Positions 8,462 to 58,160 of a stretch of DNA of 64,000 bases are shown here, one piece after another. The translations under genes and the position numbers were made by a program. Source of the stretch: an uncultured bacterium. Lineage in GTDB: Bacteria; Desulfobacterota; BSN033; UBA1163. Location: NCBI GenBank assembly GCA_938045955.1, contig CALIBK010000006.1:312-64311 (forward strand), in the 5' to 3' direction. Below the pieces are notes generated by a model. That model was not told the DNA's origin, did no database searches, and worked only from the letters and a program-made list of their open reading frames with translations. How positions within the stretch are numbered: the stretch's first letter is position 1; each line of letters starts with the position of its first letter.

Positions 8462-11005
8462 ATGAGGGATCAGGAAGAGATTGAAAGACTCCGCCAGAGA
8501 ATCTCAGAACTTGAGCGACGGGAGGAGGAACAGAAAGAACGGGAGACCCTTTTCCAGGAGCTCTTTAATGCCACCGAAGAAGCCATCCTTCTGATCGACC
8601 TTAAAGGAAAGATCCTGATGGCGAATCAAAATGCAGCTCGTCTCTATGGTCTTCCTCTGCGAACACTTATCCATACCTCTATTTATAGCTTGATTCCCAG
8701 CGATCGAGTCGAAAGTGCCCGAAAGAAAGTACAAAAAGTAGTAGAGACGTTAAGACCTTTTCGCTTCGAAGGAAGGCAGGGGGAAAGGGTTTTTGAGAAC
8801 AGTCTTTATCCAGTCTTTAACGAAGTGTCTGGAGTTAAAGGGATTGCCATTTATGTTCGAGATATTACTGAAAAGAAACGGCTCGCTACCATCCTGGAAC
8901 AAACCGAAAAAAAATACAGAAATATCTTTGAGCATGCGATGGAAGGCATCTTTCAGGTCGATCCTGAAGGCCGTCTTTTGAGCGCCAATCCTGCGCTGGC
9001 TCAAATCCATGGATATGAATCTCCTGAATCCCTAATTGCCTCGGTGTCCAACGTCTCTATGCTCTATCTCGATCCCAACGAACATCAGCGACTCGTTCGT
9101 CTTCTCTTTGAACAAGGGGCAGTCCAAAATTATGAAGTTAAAATGCGCCGGAAAGATGGATCCCCTCAATGGATCTCCATCAATGTTCGATTGGTTCGAG
9201 ACGATCACGGAAATCCTGCTTACTATGAGGGGACAATGATTGATATTACCCATCGAAAAATGGCAGAAGAGGCTCTCTCAGAAAGCGAAGAACGATATCG
9301 GACCGCCATTGAGCACTCCAACGATGCTGTGGCCATCATTCAGGGAGATCGAATTCAATATGTGAACCGGAGATTCATAGAGATTTTCGGCTACTCCCAT
9401 CCCGATGAACTGGTGGGGCAATCGGTTCTCGTCGTGGTTCATCCAGAGGATCAGGAGAAGGTCCGCTCTGTCAATCAGCGAAGACAGAGGGGAGAATCGG
9501 TCCCCTCTCGATATGAATTCAAAGGAATCACCCGGGACGGAAGGGTCATTTATATTGAAGTCTCTGCTACCAGTATTCAATACCGAGAGGCTCAAGTCTA
9601 TCTCGTTTATCTCAGGGACATCACAGAACGAAAGATGGCCGAGGAATTGATGAAGATGGAACGAGACCGATTTCGAACCCTTTCCGAGAATGCTCCCTTC
9701 GGGATTATCCTGATTAACCGAGAAGGAAAATTTGAGTACGTGAATCCAAAATTTAAAGAGCTCTTTGGCTATGAGCTCCATGAAGTTCCAAATAACCGGG
9801 AATGGTTCAAAAAAGCCTTTCCCGATCAGAAGGTACGGAGAGAGGTCATCTCCGCCTGGGTCTCTTATCTCGAAAGCACCAGGCCAGGAGAAAAGGTTCC
9901 TAAAACCCTCTCCACGACCTGTAAAGATGGATCGGAAAAGGTCATCCACTTCATTCCAGTTCGACTGGCCACAGGGGAATATATTGTCACTCTCGAAGAT
10001 GTCACAGAAAGGATCAGGGCTCACGAAGCATTAATTCGCTCCCATCAGGAGCTCGAGAGGCTTAACCGGGCTAAAAGCAAAGCCGTGAACCTCATCTCCC
10101 ATGAATTGAGAACTCCTCTGTCAGTCATCCAGGGAAATATTCGTCTTTTGAAAAAGAAATTGAAGAGCTCCATGGATGGATCCCTTCAAAAGATGATTGA
10201 TACTCTCGAGAGAAATCTGGAGAGACTCTCTAATATCTCGAAGGAGACCGACGAGATATTCCGCGTCTCTCAAGAGCTGGAGGCGGGGATATTACTGGAC
10301 AATCTGGATCGGCTCTGGGAACGAATCTCAAATCTCTCGGAAATGCCCCGGCGTGTCCGACTCCATTTTAACGAATTGAAGGCATGGCTCAATCAGTACC
10401 TCTCAGGCAGGGTTGAGGAATTTCAATCCATCAACCTCTTCCCTTTTGTCCTGGATGTTCTTGAAAGAGTTAAATCCCTATCCCGGCATCGAAAAATCTA
10501 TTTTCAAGCCACAGGGAAAAACGATCTTTTCGTTTTTCTCGACCCTCTCATCTTACAAAATGTGGTGGAAGGACTTCTCAAGAATGCCGTGGAAAACACC
10601 CCCGATGGGGGAACGGTTCGCATAAAAGTCGAACAGATGCAAGATAAGATATTGCTTCATGTTTCGGATGATGGGGTTGGAATTACAGAAGAAAATCAAC
10701 CCTATATCTTCGATGGACTCTTCCCTACCAAAGAAACTGAACTCTATGCATCGAAAAAGCCTTATGATTTTGGAGCCGGGGGGAAAGGGTTAGACCTTTT
10801 TCGGATGAAGAGGTATGCGGAGCGTTTTGGATTTGACCTTTCCATGACGAGCAAGCGGTGTGTCCATATCCCGACGGAGAAAGACCAGTGCCCCGGGGAT
10901 ATCTCTCAATGTCCTCATGTAAAGGATGCAAGGGAATGTGCAGAAGCCGGGGGGACAACCTTTACAGTCGCTTTCCCGTCAAAGAATCCTCCCGCAAAAA
11001 ATTAA
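8462..11005 (+). CDS. Multi-PAS sensor histidine kinase with an N-terminal coiled coil, about 4 PAS/PAC modules, HisKA (ISHELRTPLSVIQG) and HATPase_c. Cys-rich C-terminal tail.
   Basis: Repeated PAS signatures (ITERK/ITHRK/ITERK junctions), H-box, N/G boxes. Likely ATG at 8462 preceded by GGAGA; the ORF track gives a TTG at 8450. TATAAT at 8426-8431. Confidence 0.85.
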   Translation: MRDQEEIERLRQRISELERREEEQKERETLFQELFNATEEAILLIDLKGKILMANQNAARLYGLPLRTLIHTSIYSLIPSDRVESARKKVQKVVETLRPFRFEGRQGERVFENSLYPVFNEVSGVKGIAIYVRDITEKKRLATILEQTEKKYRNIFEHAMEGIFQVDPEGRLLSANPALAQIHGYESPESLIASVSNVSMLYLDPNEHQRLVRLLFEQGAVQNYEVKMRRKDGSPQWISINVRLVRDDHGNPAYYEGTMIDITHRKMAEEALSESEERYRTAIEHSNDAVAIIQGDRIQYVNRRFIEIFGYSHPDELVGQSVLVVVHPEDQEKVRSVNQRRQRGESVPSRYEFKGITRDGRVIYIEVSATSIQYREAQVYLVYLRDITERKMAEELMKMERDRFRTLSENAPFGIILINREGKFEYVNPKFKELFGYELHEVPNNREWFKKAFPDQKVRREVISAWVSYLESTRPGEKVPKTLSTTCKDGSEKVIHFIPVRLATGEYIVTLEDVTERIRAHEALIRSHQELERLNRAKSKAVNLISHELRTPLSVIQGNIRLLKKKLKSSMDGSLQKMIDTLERNLERLSNISKETDEIFRVSQELEAGILLDNLDRLWERISNLSEMPRRVRLHFNELKAWLNQYLSGRVEEFQSINLFPFVLDVLERVKSLSRHRKIYFQATGKNDLFVFLDPLILQNVVEGLLKNAVENTPDGGTVRIKVEQMQDKILLHVSDDGVGITEENQPYIFDGLFPTKETELYASKKPYDFGAGGKGLDLFRMKRYAERFGFDLSMTSKRCVHIPTEKDQCPGDISQCPHVKDARECAEAGGTTFTVAFPSKNPPAKN

Positions 11006-12426: not shown

Positions 12427-12550
12427 GAAATGAATGCTTATTCTTGTCATTCCCGCGCAGGCGGGAATCCAGTTTTTTCAAAATGTTTCTGGATTCCTGA
12501 TAACGCAGGAATGACGGTGACTGTAACTTTTTTAATTTCCCTTGTATTAA
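12427..12550 (+). repeat. Interspersed repeat family A, copy 1: MITE/REP-like element made of two mutually inverted hairpins (GTCATTCCCGCGCAGGCGGGAATCCAG ... CTGGATTCCTGATAACGCAGGAATGAC).
   Basis: About 88% identical over about 122 bp to 58039-58160. Translates into the well-known spurious SFPRxRESS / VIPAxxGIQ / FRRNDG peptides (ORF 12447-12659 minus contains VIPALSGIQ). Confidence 0.8.
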
Positions 12551-20467: not shown

Positions 20468-20585
20468 TCCTGTTCTCCTTCGTTAAACTTATTCGCTAAA
20501 TTCATGAGGTAGGATTTGATTCTAAGTCGCTATCTTCTCTCCTATGAAAAGATTGATTTCCCCGGAGACCACATAGGAGATTTGT

Positions 20586-20627
20586 TCATGAGGATGAGAA
20601 TGGGGAGGAACTCTTAACCACGCTCAT
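20586..20627 (-). CDS. Candidate 13-codon upstream ORF (MSVVKSSSPFSSS) in the roughly 190-nt leader of the amidohydrolase operon
   Basis: AAGGGAGA then 5 nt then ATG; Ser-rich peptide. Followed by a 9-bp inverted repeat TCTCCTATG/CATAGGAGA. Promoter TTGACA(20683-20688)-N18-TATGAT upstream. Confidence 0.25.
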   Translation of the reverse strand: MSVVKSSSPFSSS

Positions 20628-20690
20628 AGGAATCTCCCTTTTTAAATTTTGATGGATTATCATAAAAATTTAAAAATATTCCTGTCAAGC

Positions 20691-20726
20691 AAAATAAAAA
20701 GGCCGACCTTCATAAAGATCGGCCTT
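20691..20726 (-). terminator. Rho-independent terminator (10-bp stem AAGGCCGAUC/GGUCGGCCUU, 8-nt loop, then UUUUUAUUUU on the minus strand)
   Basis: Read directly from the sequence. Lies 50 nt after the small-ORF stop and just before the TTGACA of the amidohydrolase promoter. Confidence 0.7.
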
Positions 20727-20775
20727 CCCTTGCGGGGCTTTCCTTCAGGTGAGCAGTTTAACGTCATGCTCAGGA

Positions 20776-20832
20776 CTAACGCATTGAACCACAGGCTGAA
20801 CAATGGGTGGCATGGGGAAACATCCATCTCAT
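20776..20832 (-). CDS. Small protein gene: 18-aa peptide MRWMFPHATHCSACGSMR
   Basis: Consensus -35 TTGACA (20879-20884), 18-bp spacer, TAAGAT (20855-20860). SD AAAGGAGGTGA 8 nt before the ATG. TAG stop, terminator 50 nt downstream. Confidence 0.5.
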   Translation of the reverse strand: MRWMFPHATHCSACGSMR

Positions 20833-21021
20833 GGACCTCACCTCCTTTAAATTTATCTTAAGGGATACTCTCCCCATCTGTCAAGGAAAAGATTCCGAGC
20901 GCTCTCTGAAAAAATATTCCTCCGTCACTCCTTGGAAAGGATCTAAATTGATTCAACTTAAAAAACTGGCATATTTTAACCTGAATGGAGCGATTTTTCC
21001 TCATGAATTGAATCAAAGATA

Positions 21022-21098
21022 CTGGATTCGGCTTCCGCAGGAATGACGACTACCACCCGATGAATGAAAATGTCATTCCCGTGAAAACAGGAATCGAG
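21022..21098. repeat. Rearranged or partial copy of repeat family A (CTGGATTCGGCTTCCGCAGGAATGAC ... GTCATTCCCGTGAAAACAGGAATC)
   Basis: Both hairpin modules of family A are present but in swapped order, immediately downstream of the HTH gene stop. Confidence 0.6.
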
Positions 21099-21132
21099 AA
21101 GGGTTTATCTTTAAATAATCCCAAGAATCCTC

Positions 21133-21549
21133 TCAATCCCTCCCTTTCCTTTTTAGAAGGGTTAAAAGGTCAGATTCTTTCGAGCCTTTAAGATTAATTT
21201 TTTCCTTTTCCTCCCCTCCCTTCAATTCCTCTCTCTTCCACTCCTTTTCTCTTACCATTCGTTTCTCGATCCAGCGATCAAGGGCTTTCAGGTCAAATAG
21301 GACTCGATCCCCAATTTTTAGATAGGGGAGTTTTTTCTGGGATGCCATTCGGTAGACGGTCTCTATGGATAAACTTAAATATTGAGCCGCCTCCTTTGCA
21401 GTGATCAGCCTTCGAAGCTCTGGAATCTTTTTGATCCGTTCGTCCATCCGTTCGAAATATTTTTCTGCCAAAAGATCCGCTAACGTATTTAAGAATTCCT
21501 TCACGGGAGGACTCATTTCTTCTCTACCCATCTCCCTCTCCTCGATCAA
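21133..21549 (-). CDS. Excisionase-family (MerR-like HTH_17) DNA-binding protein with a charged C-terminal tail
   Basis: 138 aa. ITAKEAAQYLSLSIETVYRMASQKKLPYLKIGDRVLFDLKALDRWIE matches the Xis/HTH_17 helix-turn-helix pattern. 13 bp after the REC-LpxC stop. Confidence 0.65.
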   Translation of the reverse strand: MIEEREMGREEMSPPVKEFLNTLADLLAEKYFERMDERIKKIPELRRLITAKEAAQYLSLSIETVYRMASQKKLPYLKIGDRVLFDLKALDRWIEKRMVREKEWKREELKGGEEKEKINLKGSKESDLLTLLKRKGRD

Positions 21550-21562
21550 AAAGGATCGTATT

Positions 21563-22882
21563 CTATCTTTCTCTTAGCGTGATCTCTTCGTTTATCTTCT
21601 TCATCATGGCAATATTTTCCGTATGTCCCGTGTATCGGGCAACCACCTTCCCCCGGATGGGACGATTAAGAAGATAAAAATCACCTAAAATATCTAAGAT
21701 TTTGTGCCGAACGAATTCGTCCTTGAATCGAAGTTCTGTGTTCACAATCTTCTCATCATCTACCAGGATAAAATTATGGAGTCGACCTCCACTGCCTAAA
21801 CCCATCCGCTCGAGCATCTCAATATCCTTGAGGAAACCAAACGTTCTTGCAGGAGCAATCTCTTTTTTAAAGACCTCTTCGTTTTCCATGGTAAAATGGA
21901 AGGTCTGTTTCCCGATCGGGGGCGGGTAATCTAAAAAATATTGAACCGAAAAGATCTCCGAGGGTTCAATCGTGAGGGATTTATTTTGATGAATCACCTC
22001 GAGCTTCCGATCAATGACAACCTCCTCTACCTCATCCCCCTGTTCTTCGATTCCTGCCTCCTCAATGATCTTACAGAACTCTAAAGCAGACCCATCCATG
22101 ATCGGAATCTCCTCGATCATTTTGACCATCACATTGGTAATCCGATAGGCATGAAAAACAGCCATCAGATGTTCAATTGTCTTGGCCACAGCCCTTCCCT
22201 TCTTTAATGAAGTGGCATAATCTGTCGTTTGGACAAAATCAAGGTGAGCTGGAACGACTTCCTCCGAGGAGAGATTACCGAAAAGAATTCCATGGTTGGG
22301 AGGGAGGGGTTGAAGGAGAAGTCCTGTCTTCATCCCTGAGTGAAGTCCGGTCCCGTAGAGAACCACACTCTGGCGAATCGTTCGTTGAGAAAACGGGGTA
22401 GGAATAAATTTCTCCTTCCGTGTTTGCGAATGAGGGATCCTCTCGTCCGATGAAAGGGAAGGATGAGAAACCTCCTTATGCCTGGGAATCTCCTCTATAG
22501 GCTCCACTCGGGAGAATTCTTTTCCGCTCTCTAAAGCTCGATGAATTGTTGTTAAAAGAGTATCCAGGGAAAGAGGTTTTTCAATAAAATCAAAAGCTCC
22601 TAACTTTACAGCAGCCATTGCCGTGGAGATGGTCGCATGACCTGAGATCATGATGACCGGTTTATCGGAAAGGGATTTGAGATGTTTTAGCACCTCAATC
22701 CCATCCATTCCAGGCATCCAGATATCAAGAAGGGTCACCTCGGGTTGCTCCTGTTTATATATCTGAAGGGCTTCCTCTCCACTTCTTGCAGTCACCACCT
22801 GGAAGCCTTCATCTTCTAACACACCAACCATAGAACGGACGACTCTTTCTTCATCATCCACAATGAGAATCTTTCTCTTCAT
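21563..22882 (-). CDS. lpxC: Fusion protein: NtrC-type response-regulator receiver domain plus UDP-3-O-acyl-N-acetylglucosamine deacetylase (LpxC)
   Basis: Residues 1-120: REC (ILIVDDE, LLDIWMPGMDG, ISGHATI, FIEKP). Residues about 165-439: LpxC (GTGLHSG, EHLMA, EIPIMDGSA, ARTFGF, FKDEFVRHKILDILGD, GHTEN), with all zinc ligands and catalytic residues conserved. Continuous ORF with no internal Met at the junction. Confidence 0.85.
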   Translation of the reverse strand: MKRKILIVDDEERVVRSMVGVLEDEGFQVVTARSGEEALQIYKQEQPEVTLLDIWMPGMDGIEVLKHLKSLSDKPVIMISGHATISTAMAAVKLGAFDFIEKPLSLDTLLTTIHRALESGKEFSRVEPIEEIPRHKEVSHPSLSSDERIPHSQTRKEKFIPTPFSQRTIRQSVVLYGTGLHSGMKTGLLLQPLPPNHGILFGNLSSEEVVPAHLDFVQTTDYATSLKKGRAVAKTIEHLMAVFHAYRITNVMVKMIEEIPIMDGSALEFCKIIEEAGIEEQGDEVEEVVIDRKLEVIHQNKSLTIEPSEIFSVQYFLDYPPPIGKQTFHFTMENEEVFKKEIAPARTFGFLKDIEMLERMGLGSGGRLHNFILVDDEKIVNTELRFKDEFVRHKILDILGDFYLLNRPIRGKVVARYTGHTENIAMMKKINEEITLRER

Positions 22883-22978: not shown

Positions 22979-24007
22979 TCAAAAATTTCTAACACCCACC
23001 CTTTCTCTCAGGAGTTCATAATCCTCTTCAGTGGAGGCAAATACCCCAATATTTCCTAAACGCACATGGACCAGACCTACAGACTTTACCTCTTGATAGG
23101 CTTCAATCATCTCTGAGAGTTTTGGACTTCGATAACGCTTCATTTGATATTCTGGGAAGAAAGCCAAAATCGTAAAAGGAATGGTGGGTTCCACTTCGAA
23201 TAGAAGTTGAGCGATCTTCTTTAATTGAGGCGTTTCTACAAGATTGGGAATATAGAGGGAAAGGACCTCAAGGACAAACCCTCTTTTAAGAATCTCTTCA
23301 GGGAGTCGGAGAATATTTCGATTAAAACACCCCGTCAACCATTTATGATCTGTCCCTTCAAAGGCTTTGATGTCCAACCAGAAGGAGTCTACCCCCGCCT
23401 CTTTTAGGAGATCAAGGCTCTTAGGGGTCAACCCATATCCATTGGTCTCAATGAGGACCCAGAGTTTTGTTTCTTCCTTAATTCGCCTGCTGCACTCCAC
23501 ATAAAACTCAGGGCAACAGGTAAGATCTCCTCCTGTAAAAGCAACGATATTGCGTGCTGGCCCCCAACCCTGAGGACTTAACACAATATCCCTCTTTTGG
23601 AGAACCTTCGGACAGAGGGAGGAACGTTTTCCATACATCACGCAGGCTCCACAGCAACGACAGGAATCATGAGCATGGAAGGCAGTGGCCCTCTTCCTGG
23701 GTTCTCTCACTGTCACTTCCTTTTCATATTCTTTACAGGCCTTCAAAATATCCTCAGGAGACCACCATTCCCCTTTGGCAATCTTGGTAAAATTCCAGGA
23801 ATGACATTTACGGCAGGAAAAGTTACAGCCCGATTGATAGATAGAAAGGTAGTTTTCTGGTCTTGAGAGATGGACCGAGGAGATGAGCCTCAAAGGACCT
23901 TGATCCGTTTTTTTTAAAGTCACCTCGCAGGCTAACGCCTTTCCCCCCTCCACCTCCGTGTAACAACTTCCCTGAGGATAACCCTGTTGAATCAGATTAC
24001 ATCTCAT
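22979..24007 (-). CDS. Radical SAM protein, PflX / COG1313-like (PFL-activase homologue) with an extra Cys cluster
   Basis: 342 aa. CNFSCRKC (CxxxCxxC) radical-SAM motif plus a second cluster CRCCGAC...C. Confidence 0.7.
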   Translation of the reverse strand: MRCNLIQQGYPQGSCYTEVEGGKALACEVTLKKTDQGPLRLISSVHLSRPENYLSIYQSGCNFSCRKCHSWNFTKIAKGEWWSPEDILKACKEYEKEVTVREPRKRATAFHAHDSCRCCGACVMYGKRSSLCPKVLQKRDIVLSPQGWGPARNIVAFTGGDLTCCPEFYVECSRRIKEETKLWVLIETNGYGLTPKSLDLLKEAGVDSFWLDIKAFEGTDHKWLTGCFNRNILRLPEEILKRGFVLEVLSLYIPNLVETPQLKKIAQLLFEVEPTIPFTILAFFPEYQMKRYRSPKLSEMIEAYQEVKSVGLVHVRLGNIGVFASTEEDYELLRERVGVRNF

Positions 24008-24111: not shown

Positions 24112-24882
24112 ATGGAAGAGAAAATCAGACAGGTGGCTCAATGGATTCTTCATTCCAGGAGGATCGTGATATTCTGTGGAGCAGGATTGAGTACCGAATC
24201 GGGGATCCCCGATTTTCGTAGCCCTGGTGGGGTGTGGGATAGATATAACCCGGAAGATTTTTATTTCCAGAACTTTATTTCAAGCGAAGCTTCCCGGGAG
24301 AAATACTGGCAGATGGCTACTGAAATGTATGAATCGATTAAGGGAGCTAAACCCAATCAAGCTCATCTGGCAATCGCAGAATTGGAAAGGTTAGGTAAGC
24401 TGGATTGTGTGATTACCCAGAATATTGACGGCCTTCATCATAAAGCAGGAAATTCTCCGGAAAAGATCATCGAGCTTCATGGAACCGCTCTCTTCGTCAC
24501 GTGTTTAAATTGCCACAAGCGATATGATCGGGATGAGATTCAAGAACGAATTCAGAAAGGGATAAAGGTTCCTTATTGTGACGATTGTGGCGGCCCATTG
24601 AAACCTGCCACCATCTCCTTTGGTCAATCAATGCCTGAGAAGGAGACCCAGGAAGCCTATCAAAGATCCTCCTCCTCTGATCTTTTCATTGTGATTGGCT
24701 CTTCCTTAGTCGTTCAACCTGCGGCCTCTATGCCACTGGTGGCAAAACGGAACGGGGCTAAGTTGGTGATCATCAATAGAGACCCTACCCCTTATGATCA
24801 TTTAGCCGACCTTGTCATAAACGATCTCGCCGGTAAAACGATGGCAGGTATCCTGGAAATCGTTAGATCAGAATTGGCATAA
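24112..24882 (+). CDS. cobB: NAD-dependent protein deacylase, Sir2 family (CobB-like)
   Basis: 256 aa. GAGLSTESGIPDFR Rossmann motif, zinc ribbon CLNC...CDDC, catalytic His in ELHG. Strong SD TAGGAGGAG. Confidence 0.85.
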   Translation: MEEKIRQVAQWILHSRRIVIFCGAGLSTESGIPDFRSPGGVWDRYNPEDFYFQNFISSEASREKYWQMATEMYESIKGAKPNQAHLAIAELERLGKLDCVITQNIDGLHHKAGNSPEKIIELHGTALFVTCLNCHKRYDRDEIQERIQKGIKVPYCDDCGGPLKPATISFGQSMPEKETQEAYQRSSSSDLFIVIGSSLVVQPAASMPLVAKRNGAKLVIINRDPTPYDHLADLVINDLAGKTMAGILEIVRSELA

Positions 24883-58038: not shown

Positions 58039-58160
58039 GAAATGAATGCTTATTTTTCATTCCCTCGCAGTCGGGAATCCAGTCTTTTCAAAATGTTTCT
58101 GGATTCCTGCTTCCGCAGGAATGACGGCAACTATAACTTTTTTAATTTCGTTTGTATTAA
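58039..58160 (+). repeat. Interspersed repeat family A, copy 2
   Basis: About 88% identical to 12427-12550 with the same two hairpins. Its 3' end TTGTAT serves as the -35 for the downstream gene. Confidence 0.8.

Follow-up and report, generated by a model that had tools for sequence, protein, structure and literature searches.

The minus strand of a 64,000-nt stretch of DNA from an uncultured bacterium of the Desulfobacterota (contig CALIBK010000006.1, positions 312 to 64,311; the whole of this stretch is called the window below) carries at 20691-20884 a compact unit made up of a promoter, a Shine-Dalgarno (SD) sequence, a small open reading frame (sORF) of 18 codons and an intrinsic terminator. 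Comparison with homologous units strongly supports its identification as a genuine, stand-alone and previously unannotated micro-protein gene, with substitutions that follow the reading frame of the sORF. The peptide that it would encode has conserved His and Cys residues and is most likely trans-acting and metal- or redox-active.

A micro-gene with its own expression signals

A sequence-only reading of the window had proposed this gene, and every element that it listed was found on the minus strand where it had been placed: promoter, SD, ATG, 18 codons, TAG and terminator, followed by a second promoter of the form TTGACA-N18-TATGAT. The elements are as follows.

20879-20884, minus strand: -35 hexamer TTGACA of the micro-gene's own promoter (consensus scan)
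20861-20878, minus strand: promoter spacer, 18 nt between TTGACA and TAAGAT
20855-20860, minus strand: -10 hexamer TAAGAT of the micro-gene's own promoter (consensus scan)
20838-20848, minus strand: SD sequence AAAGGAGGTGA, complementary over its 11 nt to the canonical 16S 3' end
20776-20832, minus strand: sORF of 18 sense codons, MRWMFPHATHCSACGSMR, plus TAG (ATG 20832-20830, TAG 20778-20776)
20770-20775, minus strand: TCC TGA, the last sense codon and stop of the 20-codon form of relatives, untranslated in the window because of the upstream TAG
20750-20772, minus strand: conserved hairpin TGAGCA-N11-TGCTCA, whose first bases are the ancestral TGA stop
20691-20729, minus strand: intrinsic terminator, a GC-rich hairpin at 20729-20696 (GGCCGATC.../...GGTCGGCC) followed by TTTTTATTTT
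20659-20688, minus strand: neighbouring promoter TTGACA-N18-TATGAT, directly past the terminator and outside the micro-gene

From the position of the -10 hexamer, transcription would start at about 20846-20850, at the SD itself. The sequence GGTCC separates AAAGGAGGTGA from the ATG, so that the 8-nt spacing given in the sequence-only reading holds when counted from the GGAGG core and becomes 5 nt when counted from the full 11-mer. None of the 55 long open reading frames (ORFs) of the window equals this 11-nt match to the anti-SD (their maximum is 9 and their median 5), and the 10-mer AAGGAGGTGA occurs in the window only once. The GC-rich terminator hairpin begins about 46 nt after the TAG, and its T-run extends to about 20691. 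In scans of an 8-kb stretch, the two TTGACA promoters were the top two promoter-like sites by consensus, and the micro-gene terminator had the longest stem by far (15 pairs). Across the 64 kb, the pattern TTGACA-N17-19-TANNNT occurs four times against 0.84 expected, with two of the four at the micro-gene locus. A repeat search found the sORF unit to be single-copy in the window. A chance origin is excluded mainly by conservation, as the unit is found entire in 11 further distinct lineages.

Loci of relatives were obtained via two linked genes, encoding a receiver-domain-LpxC (REC-LpxC) fusion and an HTH_17 protein, and were searched by blastn and tblastn, with an nhmmer profile and with regular expressions for the peptide. 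The same unit was recovered with its peptide frame conserved. In all, 12 distinct lineages carry it, the window included, and the 11 further ones are uncultured Thermodesulfobacteriota-like bacteria (NCBI labels close homologues of window proteins as Thermodesulfobacteriota). The window itself belongs to a metagenome-assembled contig, ERZ6863514. The copies come from the window, L163-165, L166-168, L087, L090, L091, L094, L169, L172, L174, L085, P0122 and L177. The last two were found by an exhaustive phmmer search with the 33-aa in-frame extension of the window sORF against 1.84 billion representative proteins (from a 15-billion-protein collection), in which P0122 and P0123 were real members, both of them present only as accidental read-through calls. 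P0122 is such a call of 98 aa, and P0123 (locus L177) a divergent copy set among other genes; a third match, P0121, was rejected as a repetitive false positive. A further search with P0123 matched only itself. Across all fetched loci, no SD-preceded CxxCG sORF was found beyond this family. The back-translated pattern had no match in viral contigs, the peptide had none in plasmids, and phages yielded only E = 7 matches inside transposase zinc ribbons.

The expression signals are conserved along with the reading frame. Conservation in the alignment runs from the -35 through the -10, SD, ORF and 23-nt hairpin, breaks off over a spacer and resumes in the terminator. Nine of 10 aligned relatives keep the -35 region, CTTGACAG. 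L174 has TTGACG at the hexamer. The -10 reads TAAAAT, TAAGAT or TAGAAT at the same place; altogether the micro-gene's own -35 and -10 are conserved in 10 lineages. Every relative has the terminator (AAGGCCGG...CCGGCCTTTTT), preceded by 20-45 nt of non-conserved spacer, and one pair of its stem covaries between GC and AU. The half of the promoter spacer next to the -35 is purine-rich and semi-conserved across lineages (GGAGAGGGA-like, alignment columns 20-35), which could reflect a regulator site or merely shared ancestry.

Coding constraint on the peptide

Substitutions were counted over the first 18 codons of nine distinct intact copies. The 16 variable columns are distributed 2/1/13 over codon positions 1/2/3 (binomial P ~1e-4 for at least 13 of 16 at one codon position). 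Thirteen of the 15 degenerate third positions vary, and 12 of those 13 changes are synonymous. Pooled Nei-Gojobori proportions of synonymous and nonsynonymous differences in the sORF frame were pS 0.50 and pN 0.034 (pN/pS 0.069), as against pN/pS of 1.9 and 2.4 when the same nucleotides were read in the other two frames. Codons 1-18 of the intact copies contain no indels. The covariation term of an RNAalifold consensus was +0.11 kcal/mol, with a single compensatory pair, located in the terminator, and none in the ORF. The comparison shows that selection preserves the peptide sequence and not an RNA structure. Sequestration of the SD, or RNA structure within the ORF, was considered and rejected, given that there is no covariation and that the spacer between SD and ATG varies. 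The claim of a compact stand-alone gene for a genuine micro-protein is strongly supported by the codon-periodic substitutions (pN/pS 0.07) and the conserved promoter, SD, ATG and terminator.

Residues 1-16, M-R-W-M-F-P-H-A-T-H-C-S-(A/T)-C-G-S, are present in every intact copy, and the core WMFPHATHCSxCG is kept even in the divergent L177. This core is invariant among metagenome loci whose REC-LpxC proteins are only 64-75% identical and whose HTH_17 proteins are 67-95% identical. After residue 16 the tail is variable, giving total lengths of 18, 20 or 24 aa. Most relatives have 20 codons ending at a TGA two codons past the TAG of the window; the window and L163-165 have TAG as codon 19, where the other copies encode R, W, L or E, and in P0122 the TGA has become TGG, making the ORF four codons longer. 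Read-through or selenocysteine insertion at the ancestral UGA was rejected, as the window and L163 stop earlier at TAG, and the window and L085 have a second TGA 3 nt on. At the other end, GGAGGTGA-N5-ATG is invariant in all intact copies, and the start is placed at M1 because in-frame stops lie directly upstream of the ATG (TAA in L094, a stop in L163 and L166).

One copy has decayed. In L085 the promoter is gone and the SD is weakened, and this is the only copy with several replacements (R2N, P6L, H7Q and H10P; pN/pS 0.27 versus the others). Expression signals and peptide constraint were lost together, as expected if expression and peptide are selected jointly.

Predicted product and its comparisons

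We consider it probable that the unit is a stand-alone micro-gene whose peptide acts in trans through a metal or redox activity. The gene would be monocistronic, transcribed from its own near-consensus sigma-70 promoter into an RNA some 160 nt long (minus strand, approximately 20848 to 20691), which would end at its own intrinsic terminator and be translated from an exceptionally strong SD. The hairpin after the stop codon probably stabilises or processes this short mRNA. The predicted peptide is soluble and has 18 aa in the window and 20 in most relatives, with a 16-residue core and a short variable basic tail. Its P-H-x-x-H-C-x-x-C-G segment may form a short helix or knuckle. His7, His10, Cys11 and Cys14 stand at i, i+3, i+4 and i+7, i.e., on one helix face, and this face may bind a metal ion (Zn, Fe or Cu) or cycle as a CxxC dithiol/disulfide. 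The four ligands are too close together to close easily on one ion, so that the site would most likely be completed by a dimer or a partner protein. Such a partner would be a larger protein, its activity modulated by the peptide clasped onto it. The peptide has no hydrophobic stretch and is therefore not a membrane peptide or a type I toxin. Type I toxins are also overlapped by an antisense RNA; no search was aimed at an antisense promoter here, and in the non-conserved spacer no antisense signal is conserved. More tentatively, and with a good deal of doubt, the family could be a new class of ultra-short (18-20 aa) stand-alone metallo- or redox-peptides in which a single two-turn helix or knuckle with H-x2-H-C-x2-C either bridges a metal between two copies or serves as a trans-acting switch on a partner protein (candidates would include a sigma factor or the linked REC-LpxC or HTH_17 regulators), or else a leaderless Cys/His/Trp cofactor precursor.

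Several points weigh against a trans-acting metal- or redox-active peptide, or limit how far the case for it reaches. The post-stop hairpin is conserved in sequence, which a purely protein-coding role leaves unexplained. The case for a metal, redox or partner function comes from the motif and from sub-threshold similarities, and among the fetched loci no gene co-occurs consistently with the unit, save the cluster used to find the loci. In five related lineages (L089, L170, L171, L173 and L176), at least the first 4 kb downstream of HTH_17 do not contain the unit; it is thus accessory, or lies elsewhere in those genomes. The sample comprises about 12 lineages of one clade, found through the linked REC-LpxC and HTH_17 genes, all of the organisms are uncultured, and the case is built from sequence comparison.

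Database comparisons place the peptide in a new family, of a kind (bacterial sORF-encoded micro-proteins) that is already known. The 20-mers matched nothing in NCBIfam, precursor families included, and the whole window had no Rfam match at gathering thresholds. A doubled 40-mer of the peptide retrieved no candidate from 5.8 billion protein clusters in a word-index search. Full-text literature searches found no paper with the peptide string, and a general search returned only generic small-protein papers. Pfam likewise gave nothing above threshold, with sub-threshold matches to zinc ribbons: the second knuckle of zf-ChsH2 (E = 0.004), Zn_ribbon_RanBP (0.003) and Zn_ribbon_IS1595 (0.024). In zf-ChsH2 (PF12172, the N-terminal ribbon of DUF35), the peptide's RWMFPHATHCSTCGS aligns to profile positions 19-33 of 37 ('...fP....C..CGs'). 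However, the match scores 17.4 bits against a cut-off of 23.2, and the peptide lacks the first CxxC knuckle and has two His ahead of its CxxC instead. PDB chain 9myr_B contains FP-RTHCPTCGS, and all PDB sequence matches have E > 1. A likeness to rubredoxin-type zinc ribbons is weakly suggested, as a resemblance of motif and not a demonstrated homology.

The ZAS motif H-x3-C-x2-C of the RsrA/ChrR type (Pfam zf-HC2) belongs to four-helix domains of about 80-90 residues. His7-x3-Cys11-x2-Cys14 fits this motif exactly, but the peptide has only 18-20 residues, and a sigma factor gene is adjacent in L177 alone, not in the other 11 lineages. Bacterial micro-proteins of less than 50 aa that bind larger proteins include MgrB, MntS, AcrZ, CydX and SpoVM, as well as PatS (13-17 aa), and most characterised examples are hydrophobic membrane helices. 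The micro-gene shares with these a stand-alone and very short ORF with its own signals, conservation at the amino acid level, omission by gene callers and a product too small for an enzyme. In contrast to them, its peptide is soluble, basic and His/Cys-rich, without sequence similarity to any of them and at the extreme low end of their size range.

The divergent copy in L177 (1301-1560) has the core (K)WMFPHATHCSVCGAIRKS after a residual AGGTGA-N11-GTG. The same frame could alternatively start at an upstream GGAGG-N7-ATG behind a consensus promoter, giving a 39-aa form with the extension MKSLKIGQLAKKAQVNIETV. Upstream lies a DUF3179 gene and directly downstream a gene for an ECF-type (extracytoplasmic function) sigma factor, and the terminator directly abuts a degenerate hairpin. 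A tblastn search with this sigma factor over the window and all loci gave no further match. The 20-codon N-terminal extension is faintly like the start of a MerR-type HTH (Pfam E = 0.3); an origin of the extension from such a domain is a lead, not a result, as it comes from a single sequence.

Alternative readings and gene neighbourhood

The main rival reading turns on the post-stop hairpin. The transcript could be a dual-function RNA, both the mRNA of the peptide and a regulatory or protein-binding RNA acting through TGAGCA-(A/T)GACGTTAAAC-TGCTCA at the stop codon. The 23 nt of the hairpin are conserved in sequence in all copies and the next 20-45 nt are not, the exact pattern TGAGCA-N11-TGCTCA is restricted to loci that bear the sORF, and the hairpin is put at forming in 98% of cells. 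Coding cannot explain it, since in the window and L085 a further in-frame TGA follows 3 nt past the TGA stop. The stem is nearly invariant but lacks compensatory changes; its departures are one G-U pair and one broken pair. In the loop, 5 of 10 lineages have single substitutions at scattered positions, unlike a base-pairing seed, and targets of the loop in the window are at chance level (three matches with at most one mismatch versus 1.5 expected, one of them the site itself); no Rfam family matches. The inverted repeat could be an RNA hairpin or equally a DNA operator. Taken together, we regard a dual-function RNA as unlikely.

A precursor of a ribosomally synthesised and post-translationally modified peptide (RiPP) or of a peptide cofactor, similar to PqqA or MftA, is an improbable alternative. 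Here the His/Cys/Trp core would be cross-linked by an enzyme whose gene lies elsewhere, for example the radical SAM protein encoded at 22979-24007. The invariance of the 16-residue core, the very short peptide and the strong expression signals would all suit a precursor, and all loci have a radical SAM gene 2-6 kb upstream, joined in L172 and L174 by B12-radical SAM genes 2-4 kb downstream. However, the best matches of the neighbouring radical SAM protein are activases of glycyl-radical enzymes, at scores far below cut-off; the protein matches neither SPASM nor RRE and occurs just as much in lineages without the sORF, all of which makes a RiPP-precursor role unlikely. The possible 20-residue N-terminal extension of L177 could serve as a leader, but the main family has no leader peptide. 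No NCBIfam precursor family matched, and no linked protease, exporter, YcaO, MNIO or lanthipeptide enzyme was found.

The genes that flank the unit bear on whether it acts in cis. They differ between lineages, as listed here.

Upstream, HTH_17: window, L090, L091, L094, L085, L172 and L174
Upstream, divergent AFOR gene: L163 and L166
Upstream, acyl-CoA dehydrogenase gene: L087
Downstream, cupin_2 gene: L163 and L166
Downstream, 5'-nucleotidase gene: L087 and L172
Downstream, MFS transporter gene: L174
Downstream, convergent cupin gene: L169
Downstream, M20 operon: the window only, among the related loci fetched

This variation argues that the unit acts in trans and does not control a downstream gene. 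The sequence-only reading had offered the peptide as a possible leader or attenuator for the M20 amidohydrolase operon. Leader and arrest peptides such as trpL, hisL, TnaC and the Erm leaders combine a short ORF, a strong SD and a terminator hairpin, and the micro-gene shares this layout, with a same-strand gene following the terminator as in a classical attenuator. An attenuation leader or ribosome-arrest peptide would set terminator read-through into that gene. Invariance like that of residues 1-16 is typical, too, of nascent chains in contact with the ribosomal exit tunnel, and the conserved hairpin would be opened by a ribosome standing at codons 16-20. Yet the downstream gene may be a cupin, 5'-nucleotidase, MFS or M20 gene, and in L169 it is convergent; among the related loci fetched, M20 directly follows the unit in the window alone. 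In the reference genomes, the nearest orthologue of the M20 gene, L003 (72% identity), is preceded by a different gene, and the sORF is absent there. Past the terminator, the downstream gene of the window, L163 and L166 is served by a consensus-type promoter of its own. The peptide contains neither regulatory amino-acid runs nor repeated codons, and it varies at residues 17-20 and the stop position, the usual place of arrest motifs. The spacer from hairpin to terminator lacks conservation, and neither the minimum-free-energy folds of the window transcript nor the consensus fold contain a terminator/antiterminator alternative or any other pairing with a terminator arm; the hairpins are independent of each other. 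A cis-acting peptide is very improbable, and the sORF should not be annotated as leader of the M20 operon.

Another suggestion, that the sORF is the 3' cistron of the REC-LpxC/HTH transcript, does not hold either: in L163 and L166 an AFOR gene in the opposite orientation lies between HTH_17 and the sORF, and the unit has its own -35 and -10 in 10 lineages. In all fetched relatives the cluster contains REC-LpxC (21563-22882, minus strand in the window), HTH_17 (21133-21549, minus), the radical SAM gene (22979-24007, minus) and SIR2 (24112-24882, plus). HTH_17 is a 130-140-aa 'excisionase-family' protein, the activase-like radical SAM protein carries an additional Cys cluster, and SIR2 is divergent; some relatives have an aldehyde dehydrogenase gene or an insertion sequence element within the REC-LpxC/HTH_17 cluster. 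Automatic gene callers never called the real 18-20-aa ORF. What they put over the micro-gene and its promoter are spurious ORFs of 71-74 aa on the opposite strand (window 20831-21046, plus strand, corresponding to L001 5422-5637; L174 9547-9771) or, in P0122, the 98-aa read-through ORF.

Comparison with L163, the closest relative of the window (HTH_17 95% identical), reveals losses on both sides of the micro-gene, which is itself intact. On one side the window lacks the AFOR gene and has in its place about 140 nt carrying REP-like palindromes. On the other it lacks an internal piece of the cupin gene and everything from the 3' part of that gene through DctP, DctM and DctQ (TRAP transporter). 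One further feature belongs here.

20525-20627, minus strand: cupin_2 pseudogene remnant, MSVVKS..., then an internal deletion and frameshift, then PPHSHPHEQISYVVSGEINLFIGEK (three-frame translation)

By tblastn, the L163 cupin (8623-8961) is 88% identical to this remnant over residues 45-69. The TTGACA-N18-TATGAT sequence aligns with the promoter before the intact 112-aa cupin gene of L163 and L166, and on this alignment the promoter at 20659-20688 is the ancestral promoter of a cupin_2 gene. The second promoter of the sequence-only reading is therefore present, but not as the dedicated driver of the amidohydrolase operon that it was taken for: ancestrally a cupin promoter, it here faces a frameshifted remnant and may read by default into the M20 operon. 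The rearranged copy of repeat A that had been noted about 200 bp upstream corresponds to REP-like pieces at 21022-21100. They comprise two inverted single units (21022-21048 and 21072-21100) in the spacer between HTH_17 and the sORF, at the position of the AFOR gene in L163. Full copies of the REP-like palindromic units, GTCATTCCCGCGCAGGCGGGAATCCAG and CTGGATTCCTG...CAGGAATGAC, lie at 12444-12550 and 58054-58160 and are 89% identical.

A non-coding small RNA (sRNA) with an incidental ORF, or the decaying remains of a longer zinc-ribbon or HTH gene, is scarcely credible and already in large part refuted by the substitution pattern: the peptide does resemble only half a zinc ribbon and the core in L177 does come after an HTH-like stretch, but substitutions are codon-periodic and synonymous, the ORF lacks covariation, and a relic would not be expected to keep a consensus promoter, an 11-nt SD and 16 invariant residues at a synonymous divergence of about 0.5. 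The sRNA version draws on a weak cmscan match to the Caulobacter sRNA CC2171 (Rfam RF01867), which the transcript resembles in its length of about 160 nt, its start AAAGGAGGUGA and its GC-rich terminator end; the match, from a local E-value scan, reaches 23.7 bits, far under the gathering score of 75, and aligns only the generic SD and terminator ends, not the middle.

The micro-gene is a clean case of a functional gene far below the size limit of gene callers. The coding evidence is unusually clean for a gene so small, the peptide is chemically suggestive, and the distribution sampled so far is that of one uncultured clade. A peptide of 18 residues (MRWMFPHATHCSTCGSIRRS) can be synthesised and directly tested for metal binding, redox activity and partners, so that its function can be approached even though the lineage cannot be cultured. 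The peptide clearly matters to these bacteria: it is conserved more strongly than the neighbouring proteins, is preceded by the strongest SD of the window and has come through deletions on both sides.

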